From an uncultured Methanosarcinales archaeon (GTDB lineage Archaea > Nanobdellota > Nanobdellia > Woesearchaeales > GW2011-AR4): a DNA stretch of 24,322 bases. Positions 6,751-16,821 of this stretch are shown in pieces. The translations under genes were made by a program, and so were the position numbers. Positions within the stretch are counted from its first letter, which is position 1. Every line of letters begins with the position of its first letter. The notes below the pieces were generated by a model. That model saw only the letters and a list, made by a program, of their open reading frames with translations. It was not told where the DNA came from and searched no databases. The DNA lies in the NCBI GenBank assembly GCA_964518225.1, contig CAZFEZ010000001.1:1-24322 (forward strand), read 5' to 3'.

Positions 6751-7128
6751 TTATTTCCTCTCCAAAATCTTCTGCCTTAGCTTGTCATCGAGGTTCATCT
6801 CGGTTATCATTAAGTTTGAAGGATGCAGCCTGAGCAATTTCTTGGTTCCGTCTTTTTTTGCCGATTCTACGCCGCTGACAAGCACTCTTGTTCCTTTGAT
6901 GTCTATGCCCTCCACTTTGCCCTCGTGCTTCCTGAACTGGCCGCGCATGACTTTCACCTTGTCTCCTTTTCTCAGCCCCGTGCTTCTTTTGCCGTATTTT
7001 TTCCTTAAATCCTTTGAAAGGTGTGAATGCGATAATTTTTGCTTGATGTGGAGGGGAGCGCTTGACCTATACTTTCTCTGCTTTCGCGGCTTCGCGCTGC
7101 TTTTCCAAACTCTTGAAAAATGCTTCAT
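6751..7128 (-). CDS. rpl24: 50S ribosomal protein uL24 (start re-called to ATG 7128)
   Basis: SAKPRKQRKY, APLHIKQK, LRKKYG, GDKVKVMRGQF, HPSNLMI; the ORF-track start at 7173 overlaps rpl14. Confidence 0.96.
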   Translation of the reverse strand: MKHFSRVWKSSAKPRKQRKYRSSAPLHIKQKLSHSHLSKDLRKKYGKRSTGLRKGDKVKVMRGQFRKHEGKVEGIDIKGTRVLVSGVESAKKDGTKKLLRLHPSNLMITEMNLDDKLRQKILERK

Positions 7129-7133
7129 TTTAA

Positions 7134-7535
7134 TTATACAACTATGCTGGCTATTTTGGCTATGCCTGGCCACCTTTCACACGCCTCTTTTGCAATTGCG
7201 CCCTTGAAGATAGTGCCTTTTGGATTGCCCTTGTCGTCCTTCAAAACCACGGCTGAATTGTCTTCAAATTTTATCCTCATGCCGTCAGCCCTTCTGTATT
7301 CCTTCCTCTGCCGCACTATGACGGCAAAAACCACCTGTTTTCTCATATCGGGCTTGCCCCTTACAACAGATGCCATAACCAAGTCTCCAACGCCGCAGCT
7401 CTGTATCCTTCCCTTGACGGTATTCATGCCCCTGACAGTAAACACCCTGATTGTCTTTGCGCCTGAATTGTCACAAGTGTCAATCTTGCACCCAACCGGC
7501 AATGCCCTTGTCACCCTGGCTTTTAAAGGCTGCAT
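7134..7535 (-). CDS. rpl14: 50S ribosomal protein uL14
   Basis: CDNSGAK, GVGDLV, AVIVRQRKEYRRADG.RIKFEDNSAV, GNPKGT.FKG. Confidence 0.99.
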   Translation of the reverse strand: MQPLKARVTRALPVGCKIDTCDNSGAKTIRVFTVRGMNTVKGRIQSCGVGDLVMASVVRGKPDMRKQVVFAVIVRQRKEYRRADGMRIKFEDNSAVVLKDDKGNPKGTIFKGAIAKEACERWPGIAKIASIVV

Positions 7536-7961: not shown

Positions 7962-7973
7962 TTTTTTTGTGAT

Positions 7974-8282: not shown

Positions 8283-8482
8283 TCCTTTTTACTTGCCTCC
8301 TTCTGCCTTTTTATGGTAAGTATCTTTGCGATTGTTCTTTTTGCCTGGCTGATCCTGCCGGAGCTCTTTGGCGCCGTGCCTGTTGCTATTTGCGAGTTTG
8401 CCTTCATCAGCTCCTTCTTCAGCTCTGTGATTTTGCTTTCCAAATCCAGTTCATTCATTATTCTTAGTTCCTTGGCTTTCAT
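8279..8482 (-). CDS. rpl29: 50S ribosomal protein uL29
   Basis: MKAKELR.M...L...ELKKEL...GRI...KRTIAKILT. Confidence 0.95.
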   Translation of the reverse strand: MKAKELRIMNELDLESKITELKKELMKANSQIATGTAPKSSGRISQAKRTIAKILTIKRQKEASKKE

Positions 8483-9158
8483 CTTTCTTCTTCCGTCGCC
8501 TCTTTGGCTCTTCCTTGATAGCTTCTTCCTTTACTTCTTTTATCTCCTCCACTATTGTTTCTTTTTTATCCACCAGTTCTATGTCGTCGGGCAGCTTGAG
8601 GTCGGGCGGCATTATGCTGACCTTGATGCCAACTATGCCTGTCTTAAGATGCGCCTGCGCATCGGCTTTTCGTACATAATTTGCTATGTCGCCGCATTTT
8701 TTTAAATAGCCTGAATAAAAGCGCCATGATTTTGCCCTCGCGCTCGGAACTTTGCCGCTCACTACGATCTCTATTCCCAGGGCGCCTGCCCTCATCACAT
8801 CAGTCATTATCTTATGGCCTATGGCTTTGAATTTCTGCGAGCCGAATTTTTCCAGCGCATCCGTAATCTTTTCGACCACTATATGCGCATCCAGATTCGG
8901 ATTATCAACCTCGCTTATCTCTATCTGCGGGTTCTCGAGATCAAACCTTTTCTTCAGTGTTTTTGTAAGCTGTTTTATGTTCTGCCCCTTCCTTCCTACA
9001 ACCAATCCGGGCCTTGAGGCAAAAATTATAATTTTTTCCCCGAGGGGAGTTTTGACCATCTTTGTATGGCTGTGGCCAACATTTTCCAGGCTTTGGGTTA
9101 TGTATTCCTCTATCTGGAATTCCTTTATTTTCTGCGCCACAAATTTTCTTTCTATCAT
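8451..9158 (-). CDS. rps3: 30S ribosomal protein uS3
   Basis: KTPLG, RPGLVVGRKG KH motif, NPNLDA, GALGIEIVVSGK, RAKSWRFYSGYLKKCG, GIVGIKVSIM. Confidence 0.99.
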   Translation of the reverse strand: MIERKFVAQKIKEFQIEEYITQSLENVGHSHTKMVKTPLGEKIIIFASRPGLVVGRKGQNIKQLTKTLKKRFDLENPQIEISEVDNPNLDAHIVVEKITDALEKFGSQKFKAIGHKIMTDVMRAGALGIEIVVSGKVPSARAKSWRFYSGYLKKCGDIANYVRKADAQAHLKTGIVGIKVSIMPPDLKLPDDIELVDKKETIVEEIKEVKEEAIKEEPKRRRKKKDESQGTKNNE

Positions 9159-9628
9159 TTCTGCCTCACTTTTTTTGTTTTGGGCTCTTCCGCCTTTGCC
9201 TTTTCCTCGACGACAATCTCAACGTTGGTTCTTTTCATCCTTCTTCTTGATTTTCTTCCGTAATGCCATGCTTTTCCTGCTTTATGCGCCGTAACATGGG
9301 CTATAACTAAATTTGACGAGCTTAGTCCTTTGAACTGCGCATTTGACTCGACGCTTTCTATCAGCCTGATGAATTCCTTTGACGCGCTCATGGGATACCT
9401 GCCCGGCCCTATAGCTTTCTTGTGGCCCAGGTCCCAGTTATACCTTCTGAAAGGGACTGCAGCTTTCTTGTCTATGACATCCTGAAGCATTTTTTTTGCC
9501 TGAGTGATGTTTTTGTTTTTTATGAAATTGCAGATTTCAACGCTTTGCTTAAATGATATTGGCAATGCCATTCCGACAGCCCTAGCCATATGCTCCCTGT
9601 TGTAATCCCTGAATGTGTAGCCTTTCAT
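9155..9628 (-). CDS. rpl22: 50S ribosomal protein uL22
   Basis: ISFKQSVEIC, AVPFRRY, GPGRYP.SAS, NAQFKGL. Confidence 0.98.
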   Translation of the reverse strand: MKGYTFRDYNREHMARAVGMALPISFKQSVEICNFIKNKNITQAKKMLQDVIDKKAAVPFRRYNWDLGHKKAIGPGRYPMSASKEFIRLIESVESNAQFKGLSSSNLVIAHVTAHKAGKAWHYGRKSRRRMKRTNVEIVVEEKAKAEEPKTKKVRQK

Positions 9629-9720
9629 TCGTCAAAAATCCTCTTGAGTTTTATTTTTGTTTTATCCGCATTTTTCTTGCGGATTTTTGATCGTGCTCGA
9701 AAATGCCTCATTTTCGACAT
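9625..9720 (-). CDS. Putative 31-aa basic small ORF (MSKMRHFRARSKIRKKNADKTKIKLKRIFDE) between rps19 and rpl22
   Basis: Starts in a TAATG overlap with the rps19 stop and ends in an ATGA overlap with the rpl22 start; 13 of 31 residues are K/R. Confidence 0.5.
   Translation of the reverse strand: MSKMRHFRARSKIRKKNADKTKIKLKRIFDE
9632..9717 (-). promoter_or_regulatory. Structured RNA segment with competing stems upstream of rpl22
   Basis: 9-bp inverted repeat 9697-9705/9709-9717; 7-bp 9664-9670/9678-9684; 10-bp 9632-9641/9681-9690, which overlaps the 7-bp stem and the rpl22 RBS region. Confidence 0.5.
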
Positions 9721-10103
9721 TACTTCACGGACAAGCTTGCGCTTGATCTTGTAGCGCCTATTCCAGGAGCGCTGTGGGCAACTTTCCTTCTTGTCAGCGC
9801 AAATTCGCCAAGACAATGCCCTATCATGCCCTCTTCTATCATTACTGGGACAAACTCCTTGCCCTGGTGGACTTTTATTGACTTGCCTATCATTTCCGGC
9901 AAGACCACCATGTCCCTGCAATGAGTCTCGATATTTTTTTCATTTGCCCTTAATTTCTTGAGCAGTATTTTTTGCTGCTCTGTGAATCCCCTCTTTATCG
10001 TCCTTCTCTGCCTTGCAGTAAGCAGCTCTGCCAGCTCATTCAGGCTCAGTTTTTTCAATTCGTCAACCGACTTTCCCTTGAACGTGAATTCTTTCTTGGC
10101 CAT
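9720..10103 (-). CDS. rps19: 30S ribosomal protein uS19 (start re-called to ATG 10103)
   Basis: MAKKEFTFKGKS, RQRRTIKRG, THCRDMVVLPEMIG, MIGHCLGEFALTRR.V.HSAPGIGATRSS; SD GAGGT 4 nt upstream of ATG 10103. Confidence 0.97.
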   Translation of the reverse strand: MAKKEFTFKGKSVDELKKLSLNELAELLTARQRRTIKRGFTEQQKILLKKLRANEKNIETHCRDMVVLPEMIGKSIKVHQGKEFVPVMIEEGMIGHCLGEFALTRRKVAHSAPGIGATRSSASLSVK

Positions 10104-15541: not shown

Positions 15542-16180
15542 TTATATTTTTCCTCTTTTTTTGTAAATATAGTATCCTGATCCTGCCAGAACTAATGCCG
15601 CCCCTATTGTGGTGAATTCCGGAACTTCATGCTCTTCCTGCCCGTAAGAATCATTTTCGTCTGTATACTCATTCTCATAATTATCTTCATTATCCCAATC
15701 ATTCTCTTCTGAATTTTCGTCATTTTGGCCCTCTTGCTCGCTGTTTTCTTCAGAATGATCATTAGTTGATTGGTTTGATTCATTATAATCTTCAGTATTT
15801 TCGTTGCTGTTCTCTTGGCCGTCAGGCTGGCTTTGGCTGTTACCTGAAGAGCCTGAACTGCCTCCAGACGAACCTCCACCGCCACCTCCTCTTAAGCGTA
15901 CGTAAGCATGGCCTCCTGGATAATTTACATTATAGCTGTGGCCGCTGCCATTTGTATAGTTAAGTGTGCCATTTAAGAATGAATTGTAAAGGTTGAATAG
16001 GGAACTGTTTGTATCATTCAAAGACTGGTTTATTGTTGTATTGAGGCTCTTGCCTGCAATGTCCAAAGTGGTGTTGCCGTCAAACTCTATGTGAACATTC
16101 TTGTTGGACGGGATATAGGCACATCCGCTAGCAAAGGCTAGCACGATTAGTATCCCCATTAAAAGTGTGTTTTTTCTCAT
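15542..16180 (-). CDS. Secreted lipoprotein-like surface protein with PEF-CTERM sorting tail
   Basis: N-terminal MRKN + hydrophobic + ASGC lipobox; 11 N-X-S/T sequons; Gly/Ser linker; acidic N/E/D tract; C-terminal VPEFTTIGAALVLAGSGYYIYKKRGKI. Confidence 0.85.
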   Translation of the reverse strand: MRKNTLLMGILIVLAFASGCAYIPSNKNVHIEFDGNTTLDIAGKSLNTTINQSLNDTNSSLFNLYNSFLNGTLNYTNGSGHSYNVNYPGGHAYVRLRGGGGGGSSGGSSGSSGNSQSQPDGQENSNENTEDYNESNQSTNDHSEENSEQEGQNDENSEENDWDNEDNYENEYTDENDSYGQEEHEVPEFTTIGAALVLAGSGYYIYKKRGKI

Positions 16181-16341: not shown

Positions 16342-16821
16342 TTACTTTCTGCTTCTCTTCCTGTACATGTACAATCCTGCTCCTGCAAGTGCCAATCCTG
16401 CTCCTAGAGTTGTGAACTCTGGGATTAAGACCAATCCACTCTCGCTGGCAACTTCTACATTAGCAACTTCACCATTTACTTTGTAAACATATGTTCCTGG
16501 TGATGCTCCTGCTGTAGTCAATGTTACTTCGCCACATCCTGTTCCGTCTGTTGGTGATGAAGTCACAGTTGGTGTGAATTCTGCTGAAGGACCCTCAGCT
16601 CCATTACAGACTTGGTTGTTATCCAAATCCTGACAGTATGTGTCTATAACCAAATCAACTCCCACAAATGGGTCGTCAAATGCGTCTGTTATACAGGCGT
16701 CAACTGTTCTTACATCAGTTGTATCCATGGTTGTAACCTGCGGATCCAAATCCAAATCTGATGCCAGCACAGAACTAGCCATAAGCACAAAAAGTGCCAA
16801 TATACCAAATAATTTCTTCAT
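16342..16821 (-). CDS. Secreted acidic Thr/Asp-rich protein with PEF-CTERM sorting tail
   Basis: Signal peptide MKKLFGILALFVLMASSVLA; 4 Cys; C-terminal IPEFTTLGAGLALAGAGLYMYRKRSRK; strong SD GGGGGTG at 16829-16835. Confidence 0.9.
   Translation of the reverse strand: MKKLFGILALFVLMASSVLASDLDLDPQVTTMDTTDVRTVDACITDAFDDPFVGVDLVIDTYCQDLDNNQVCNGAEGPSAEFTPTVTSSPTDGTGCGEVTLTTAGASPGTYVYKVNGEVANVEVASESGLVLIPEFTTLGAGLALAGAGLYMYRKRSRK

Follow-up and report, generated by a model that had tools for sequence, protein, structure and literature searches.

Miniature transposable elements with inverted repeats (MITEs) have been counted at about 105 per Mb in a Woesearchaeal genome (PMC11602168), palindromes like the repetitive extragenic palindromic (REP) sequences are reported across bacteria and archaea (PMC12306157), and Rickettsia palindromic elements (RPEs) number 526 in R. 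bellii, where 53 of them lie inside protein-coding genes (PMC1458961). Termination-reinitiation coupling at overlapping gene pairs, with junctions such as ATGA and TAATG, is likewise described in both archaea and bacteria (PMC6728339, PMC10666635). Here we analyse a 24,322-nt stretch of DNA (hereafter the window), in which the spacer between the ribosomal protein genes rps19 (uS19) and rpl22 (uL22) is a 91-nt insert spanned by a 31-codon open reading frame (ORF). The most probable reading, in our view, is that this spacer is a copy of a small (~85–91 nt), probably non-autonomous mobile palindromic element of Woesearchaeal archaea, similar to MITEs, REPs or RPEs, and that its ORF acts as a relay and does not encode a new ribosomal protein.

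Among known systems MITEs come nearest to the element, and REP-type palindromes are near it as well. It resembles MITEs in being shorter than 100 nt, functionally non-coding, hairpin-forming and AT-rich, with ends like inverted repeats, and in being patchy among close relatives, with a similarity between genomes that far exceeds that of the host genes. It differs from them in its imperfect 9-nt terminal repeats, in the lack of a clear target duplication for the window copy, in its low visible copy number, and in reaching exactly from stop to start codon while carrying an ATG, an open frame and a Shine-Dalgarno (SD) motif. Its membership among the MITEs is not established. With the REPs and bacterial interspersed mosaic elements of Enterobacteria it shares short palindromic units, single or arrayed (in loci L043 and L004), that lie within operons between co-transcribed genes in either orientation; its sequence family, however, is unrelated to theirs, and a reading of the translated large ORFs of the window, made with no family search, revealed no RAYT-type transposase. 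Coupled mini-ORFs that bridge REPs are not known. RPEs, too, are selfish palindromic repeats, in a genome of reduced size, that tolerate translation and leave frames open, and the members of the present family found between L22 and S3 are inserted within the first codons of S3. Whereas RPEs join the host protein, the frame of this element is a separate mini-cistron set off by overlapping stop and start codons, and its host is an archaeon. Both ends of the ORF are the canonical −1 and −4 overlaps of coupled gene pairs, but the middle cistron is a non-conserved frame that came with an insert and is not a gene. The ORF is also short, Lys/Arg-rich and placed among ribosomal protein genes, as eL41 and eL39 are, but it lacks sequence similarity to them, is not conserved in relatives and is not under purifying selection. 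The literature that we searched gave no account of a stop-to-start element with a separate mini-cistron and its own SD. The element is ordinary as selfish DNA and unusual in its placement and manner of sitting.

A bridged insert between S19 and L22

An archaeal ribosomal protein operon of the S10/spc type runs along the minus strand of the window, with the gene order L3, L4, L23, L2, S19, L22, S3, L29, SUI1, S17, L14 and onward. Its genes overlap or are separated by 0–12 nt, with the S19–L22 junction as the sole exception. S19 (127 aa; 9720..10103, minus strand, TAA stop at 9722–9720) was identified from the ORF list and its translation, and is 98% identical to P0121, named 30S ribosomal protein S19 by its source and assigned to Pfam family PF00203. 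L22 (157 aa; 9155..9628, minus strand, ATG start at 9628–9626) has homologues that match PF00237, and its N-terminus MKGYTF is kept at the start position in relatives. The insert occupies 9629..9719 (minus strand) and constitutes one copy of a hairpin-rich repeat element. Its ORF, MSKMRHFRARSKIRKKNADKTKIKLKRIFDE* (9720 to 9625, minus strand), begins with an ATG that overlaps the S19 stop (TAATG, 9722–9718; overlap −1) and ends with a TGA that overlaps the L22 start (ATGA, 9628–9625; overlap −4), and 13 of its 31 residues are basic (8 Lys and 5 Arg). The exact bridging of the 91-nt gap and the basic content of the frame had been noted in an earlier reading of this DNA (the original prediction), and we confirm them from the sequence. 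It described rps19 and rpl22 as normally adjacent. Of 29 species-level relatives, 27 have a gap of −4 to 14 nt with no ORF in it. The window's gap is also conspicuous beside 297 junctions of ribosomal operons from 41 related loci, where the median is 2 nt. The two exceptional relatives, L028 (1972–2284) and L029 (2016–2407), carry an unrelated S19–L22 insert of 313–392 nt, within which an acidic ORF (MTNYDNIARLVIDTFSYELG... in L028) begins just past the S19 stop.

L22 and S19 place the window in the Woesearchaeota/Nanoarchaeia (DPANN), and the public sequencing runs that match it are groundwater metagenomes. The insert is identical in runs X1–X3 and present as a variant in X4, X5, X8 and X9. 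Because independent public runs contain the same or a variant insert, it is not an assembly artefact. In X1–X3 the window's own strain, at a depth of 2–20, has the insert, and abundant related strains, at a depth of 32–457, join 9629 directly to 9720. The closest relatives have short gaps as well: 1 nt in L034 and L035, whose S19 is P0121 (L034 is 93% identical to the window over L2, S19 and L22); 8 nt in L001, with 92% amino acid identity over the same three proteins and ~84% DNA identity; 8 nt in L036, whose S19 is 95% identical; and 2 nt in L037. L034, L035 and L036 are contigs reached through the two closest S19 proteins. Exact look-ups of the window's S19 and L22 proteins returned no record. 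The absence of the insert from the closest relatives and from abundant strains, together with its variants in other runs, establishes it as real and lineage-specific.

One further allele was found in runs X3, X4 and X8, where a joint from 9624 to 9708 belongs to a relative ~92–93% identical to the window, whose spacer is TGTCGAA only (TAATGTCGAAATGAAAGG). This allele still encodes a mini-ORF of three codons, MSK*, overlapping both genes, and it is probably a deletion derivative that retains the first 7 nt of the element. We considered whether it might be an empty site with an 8-nt target duplication and rejected this possibility on the ground that three independent contexts share AATGTCGAAAAT. 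A deletion between the short direct repeats found at either end of the element accounts for it better.

Copies of the element at other junctions

A DNA pattern scan with hairpin 2 (described below), allowing two variable positions, located a full copy in the Woesearchaeal genome L038 (JACPMS010000071.1), between the L4 stop and the L23 start. Over a block of ~95 nt it differs from the window copy by nine substitutions and a 2-nt deletion (~90% identity), whereas L4, L23, L2 and S19 of the two genomes have a DNA identity of 75%, and of 41% at fourfold degenerate sites. The S19–L22 junction of L038 itself has no element, and neither do the L4–L23 junctions of its sister genomes L065, L068 and L069. 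An independent 702-nt contig from run X3 matches the window at 9626–9722 only, and its loose ends encode the C-terminus of L4 and the N-terminus of L23. The block homologous with other copies is 9626–9722 and therefore includes the flanking TAA and ATG. A diverged copy of 85 nt lies at the L4–L23 junction of L007. The contig behind L007 also includes L043, where further hairpin units occur between two transketolase subunit genes; the first 38 nt of the element recur there, and the intergenic region is a 260-nt array of at least seven hairpins. The possibility that these 38 nt form the N-terminus of a longer gene (MSKMRHFRARPKIAK...) was rejected, as in L043 the stretch stands in the intergenic hairpin array and ends in a 29-codon frame. 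In L004 one unit is reversed within a 157-nt L22–S3 insert. L002 and L009 have a common 59-nt L22–S3 insert with 95% identity, their ribosomal proteins being 80% identical. Only one copy was seen in the 24-kb window.

A covariance model built from three copies recovered those of L038, the window and L007, and in addition L043 (E = 1.6e-7), with weaker matches to L004 (minus strand) and L009. Units of the form AAAAT-S-N3-5-S-ATTTT number 17 in 226 kb against 0.6 expected, of which about six fall within a conserved coding stretch of S3 and are not the element; arrays of units are seen in L043 and L004. In genome and metagenome contigs the exact 21-nt pattern of hairpin 2 gave bacterial chance matches only, and neither end of the element was found in viral contigs.

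The presence of the element is polymorphic, and its identity between genomes exceeds that of host genes. Within tightly packed operons, it fills precisely the interval from a stop codon to a start codon. The different insertion sites of the copies, their patchy presence on the tree, their occurrence in both orientations and an identity far above that of neutral host sites speak for a mobile element. This distribution argues against a vertically inherited gene and against a conserved regulatory site. The original prediction had not recognised the spacer as one copy of such a hairpin element.

Hairpin structure of the element

Hairpin units with an AAAAT core make up the element: hairpins 1 and 2, together with a long-range repeat overlapping the SD-like motif. 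Hairpin 1 (TCGAAAATG-AGG-CATTTTCGA; 9697..9717, minus strand) has a 9-bp stem and is the longest perfect hairpin in the window. Across six copies, three of its nine pairs show a compensatory change (G-C to A-U, A-U to G-C and G-C to C-G). Pairing is present in 98% of cells, and its covariation score was reached by none of 500 shuffles. Hairpin 2 (ATCCGCA-AGAAAAA-TGCGGAT; 9664..9684, minus strand) has a 7-bp stem and shows two compensatory pairs in the alignment of the window, L038 and L007 copies. The long-range inverted repeat pairs a 5' arm, TCAAAAATCC (9681..9690, minus strand), perfectly over 10 nt with a 3' arm, GGATTTTTGA (9632..9641, minus strand). The 5' arm overlaps hairpin 2 by 4 nt, so that the two pairings are mutually exclusive, and the 3' arm covers part of the SD-like GAGGA (9639..9643, minus strand), read from the sequence 10 nt upstream of the L22 ATG. 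The internal perfect inverted repeats thus measure 9 and 10 nt. The long-range pairing is the minimum-free-energy fold of the L038 copy, folds are more stable than those of shuffles (z = −2.2 to −2.8), and G-U pairs occur on the sense strand. The hairpins of the element are maintained by compensatory changes. Such covariation does not separate an RNA function from a palindromic mobile element.

A search of Rfam gave nothing at gathering thresholds and, at permissive E-values, far sub-threshold chance matches; no known ribosomal leader fits the element, and a tRNA search of the window found none. Read antisense, hairpin 2 runs into TTTTTGAT (window 9664–9694, plus strand), with a terminator-like score at chance level. 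This antisense match was the only one returned by a scan for bacterial promoters and terminators. T-runs are plentiful along the entire antisense strand of the element.

A similar short palindrome was noted at the L14–L24 junction, where AAAATG-AAG-CATTTT (window 7117–7137, minus strand) forms a palindrome of 6 bp with the L24 start codon at its centre. It is similar to the hairpin 1 core, and the L24 protein opens with MKHF..., comparable to MKHF/MRHF of the element. The L24 start region (AAAATGAAGCATTTT, 7117–7137) was considered as a possible origin of the element; the two match over only ~16 nt.

The peptide is not conserved

Comparison of the window and L038 copies over their 22 shared codons gave four replacements and one synonymous change, with a pN/pS of 0.98; pooled over four copy pairs, and with small counts, pN/pS was 0.73. 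The 2-nt deletion in L038 shifts the frame, and the last 21 nt (AAGAGGATTTTTGACGAATG), identical in DNA, read LKRIFDE* in one genome and MEEDF* in the other. In L007 the hairpins are kept and the peptide (MSRIKDSRVVRDKVSAIFEH...) is unrelated to that of the window. Strain variants of the ORF include S2L, H6N and a 1-nt deletion that ends the TAATG-initiated frame after three codons. Basic residues number 13 against 7.3 expected from composition (P ~0.005), an excess that we tentatively attribute to the A-runs. An exact look-up of the 31-aa ORF found nothing on record. Given the limited sensitivity of so short a query, the ORF had 0 matches in 1.84 billion representatives and 0 in Pfam, NCBIfam and PDB at E<=10, and a 40-residue query that contains it, limited in the same way, had no word-sharing candidate in 5.8 billion protein clusters. 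Overall, substitutions among the copies are for the most part non-synonymous, and the peptide is not conserved and shows no purifying selection.

A proposed translational relay across the insert

In experiments with Haloferax volcanii and E. coli, termination-reinitiation is almost lost once the gap reaches ~20 nt (PMC10666635), so that a 91-nt insert would uncouple L22 from S19 unless it is bridged. Ribosomes that end S19 would restart at the overlapping ATG and translate the element, melting its hairpins on the way, as far as the TGA that overlaps the L22 ATG; after termination they would restart at this second ATG. As such a relay, the ORF would preserve translational coupling from S19 to L22 across an insert that otherwise breaks it, and A-rich sequence would yield the basic peptide as a by-product. 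This relay is plausible and is the best-supported mechanism for the frame; the hand-over of ribosomes we infer from sequence.

Among the 297 surveyed junctions we analysed 20 that bear non-genic inserts, of 55–263 nt. A bridging frame, taken as one whose start lies no more than a few nucleotides from the upstream stop and whose end lies at or close to the downstream start, was present in 9 of the 20, against 2.2 expected from shuffling. Inserts of the AAAAT-hairpin family were bridged in eight of eight cases, and other families contributed one bridged insert. For the window spacer taken singly, the chance level is moderate, a bridging ORF arising in 5.9% of shuffles with the flanks held fixed. 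The L22–S3 inserts, the most informative of the set, lie within a duplicated S3 start (ATGATAGTA ... TTGATAGAA) and have on their flanks TGATAG, which duplicates the S3 start region. Their frame begins as ATGA on the L22 stop and ends as TTTTGA on a new TTG start; the S3 TTG start and its GGTGA are in a 10-bp hairpin that the frame crosses. These inserts measure 59, 59, 59, 113 and 161 nt, with differences of 54 and 102 nt that are multiples of 3, and in every one of them frame 0 alone is free of stops while the other frames carry them. The strain variant with a 1-nt deletion in an A-run was seen in a contig of run X8 (1 nt missing at 9710). Its S19-proximal mini-ORF, MSK*, overlaps as ATGA the internal in-frame ATG (Met4; 9709..9711, minus strand), which becomes the ORF start in this variant. 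Elsewhere in the operon, GAGG, GGTGA and GGAGG motifs lie upstream of most genes.

Of the two roles offered by the original prediction, the coupling bridge has stood as the likely one for the ORF, since in related inserts at other junctions a frame overlapping the two neighbouring genes is far commoner than in shuffled sequence, with the hand-over itself being inferential. The other, an unannotated lineage-specific small ribosomal protein, fails because the spacer is absent in relatives, the peptide is not conserved and no homologue was found. The prediction had named a spacer that is absent, or an ORF that is not conserved, in relatives as what would count against such a protein, and this is what we observed: the closest relatives lack the spacer, pN/pS is ~0.7–1, and indels of 2 nt and 1 nt change the frame.

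Alternative explanations

Several observations weigh against a mobile element that is bridged by a relay. On reading the translations of the window's large ORFs, no transposase-like gene was recognised, and no family search was made; the terminal inverted repeats are short and imperfect, GTCGAAAAT and the reverse complement of GTCAAAAAT matching at 8 of 9 positions; only AATG is common to both edges in the window and L038 copies, with no clear target-site duplication; and copy number per genome appears low, with 24 kb of the host genome visible. The relay is weakened further in that the element carries its own GAGGA, so that L22 could be initiated de novo without it, that a related L3–L4 insert of L004 has no bridging frame, and that the L038 ORF stops 5 nt before the L23 ATG, without overlap. 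In addition, the enrichment of bridging frames overstates independence because the bridged cases are partly related by descent, and a look-up of transcript and ribosome-profiling runs for this organism found none. The GAGGA, the L004 insert and the L038 ORF lend some weight to the explanation that this mobile hairpin element is simply tolerated and its ORF is incidental, with L22 initiated de novo at the element's GAGGA-ATG and the frame open only for want of stop triplets in A-rich units; the frequency of bridging frames among shuffles, which rises to 34% for the short L22–S3 inserts, and the single bridged insert in other palindrome families also fit it. We nevertheless consider an incidental ORF rather unlikely in view of the bridging of the whole AAAAT-hairpin family, of the overall excess of such frames, of the in-frame length changes of the L22–S3 inserts with a single stop-free frame, and of the deletion variants, which keep a chain of mini-ORFs from TAATG through MSK* and its ATGA at Met4 to the final ATGA at L22.

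The hairpins might instead be an adopted cis-acting RNA that tunes expression within the operon, as an mRNA stabiliser or processing site, an attenuator with a T5 run before L22, or a site that a ribosomal protein binds. The compensatory changes that retain hairpins 1 and 2, the sense-strand G-U pairs, the two mutually exclusive pairings that involve part of the SD and the stability of the fold relative to shuffles would all agree with such a role. A regulatory RNA is hard to reconcile, however, with positions that vary among the S19–L22, L4–L23 and L22–S3 junctions and the transketolase subunit genes, with a unit inverted relative to transcription, with sister genomes that lack the element and with the absence of an Rfam family at threshold, and the covariation is equally expected of a palindromic mobile element; we therefore regard this explanation as improbable. 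As for a genuine small basic protein, ribosomal and lineage-specific or some other micro-protein, whose gene would itself be the mobile unit, its favourable points are the overlapping start and stop within a ribosomal protein operon, the surplus of Lys and Arg over composition and the open frame retained in the L038 and L007 copies. Against these stand the relatives without a spacer, a pN/pS of ~1 between the window and L038, the 2-nt deletion that rewrites the last 8–9 residues over identical nucleotides, the unrelated L007 peptide behind preserved hairpins, the different peptide given by the inverted unit and the empty protein searches, which together make a protein very improbable indeed.

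Starting from a mobile element whose ORF serves as a relay, a broader suggestion can be put forward tentatively: these may be selfish DPANN hairpin cassettes that have adapted to coupled essential operons by being translationally transparent. Each copy would, on this suggestion, which we regard as possible but not as the likelier outcome, bring a start that overlaps the upstream stop, an in-phase frame free of stops, an SD, and a stop that overlaps the downstream gene (or a start for it). If so, ribosome flow and subunit stoichiometry would survive the insertion, and downstream initiation could in addition be gated conditionally by the hairpins.

Implications and other inserts in these operons

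For annotation, the bridging frames of such inserts should not be called new ribosomal proteins. At ~20 of the 297 surveyed junctions, lineage-specific palindromic inserts are present in Woesearchaeal ribosomal protein operons, which are generally regarded as invariant markers. With these inserts, the reach of a termination-reinitiation relay through an unrelated mini-cistron can be examined in natural examples, and they bear on the persistence of mobile DNA in very small genomes, within the operons under the greatest constraint. If the proposed relay is true, the elements would be ready-made intercistronic coupling modules.

Inserts of other types were seen in the same survey. In L020 a different hairpin repeat, GTGCAATC-NNN-GATTGCAC TTGAAGTCG ... 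GAAACCGTT, occurs twice in one operon, at the L23–L2 and L2–S19 junctions, and looks like a second, unrelated family that colonises junctions. Long A6TTTC...GAAAT6 palindromes lie directly before the start codons of S19, L14 and S3 in L006, which also has inserts of 800 nt (L2–S19) and 612 nt (S17–L14) that apparently contain ORFs. A palindrome type rich in GAGCGAG/CTCGCTC is inserted at S3–L29 in L004, at L22–S3 in L009 and L066, and at L23–L2 in L013. Between L23 and L2, where the window has a gap of 10 nt, L034 carries an extra ORF of 120 aa without a Pfam match (406–768).

Three further features of the window were recorded. The gap between SUI1 and S17 (7962–7973) is just 12 nt and holds no gene for an RNase P protein (Rpp29-like); in the more distant relatives L021, L022 and L024–L026, the corresponding stretch of 208–291 nt has an ORF resembling Rpp29, which we take to be a candidate for this gene. 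The start of L29 and the 3' end of S3 appear to share 32 nt (8451–8482), an unusually long overlap for this operon. Finally, two predicted secreted proteins (15542–16180 and 16342–16821, minus strand) end in ...PEFTT(I/L)GA(A/G)L(V/A)LAG(S/A)G.Y.Y(K/R)KR..., which looks like a putative archaeosortase sorting signal of the PEF-CTERM type.

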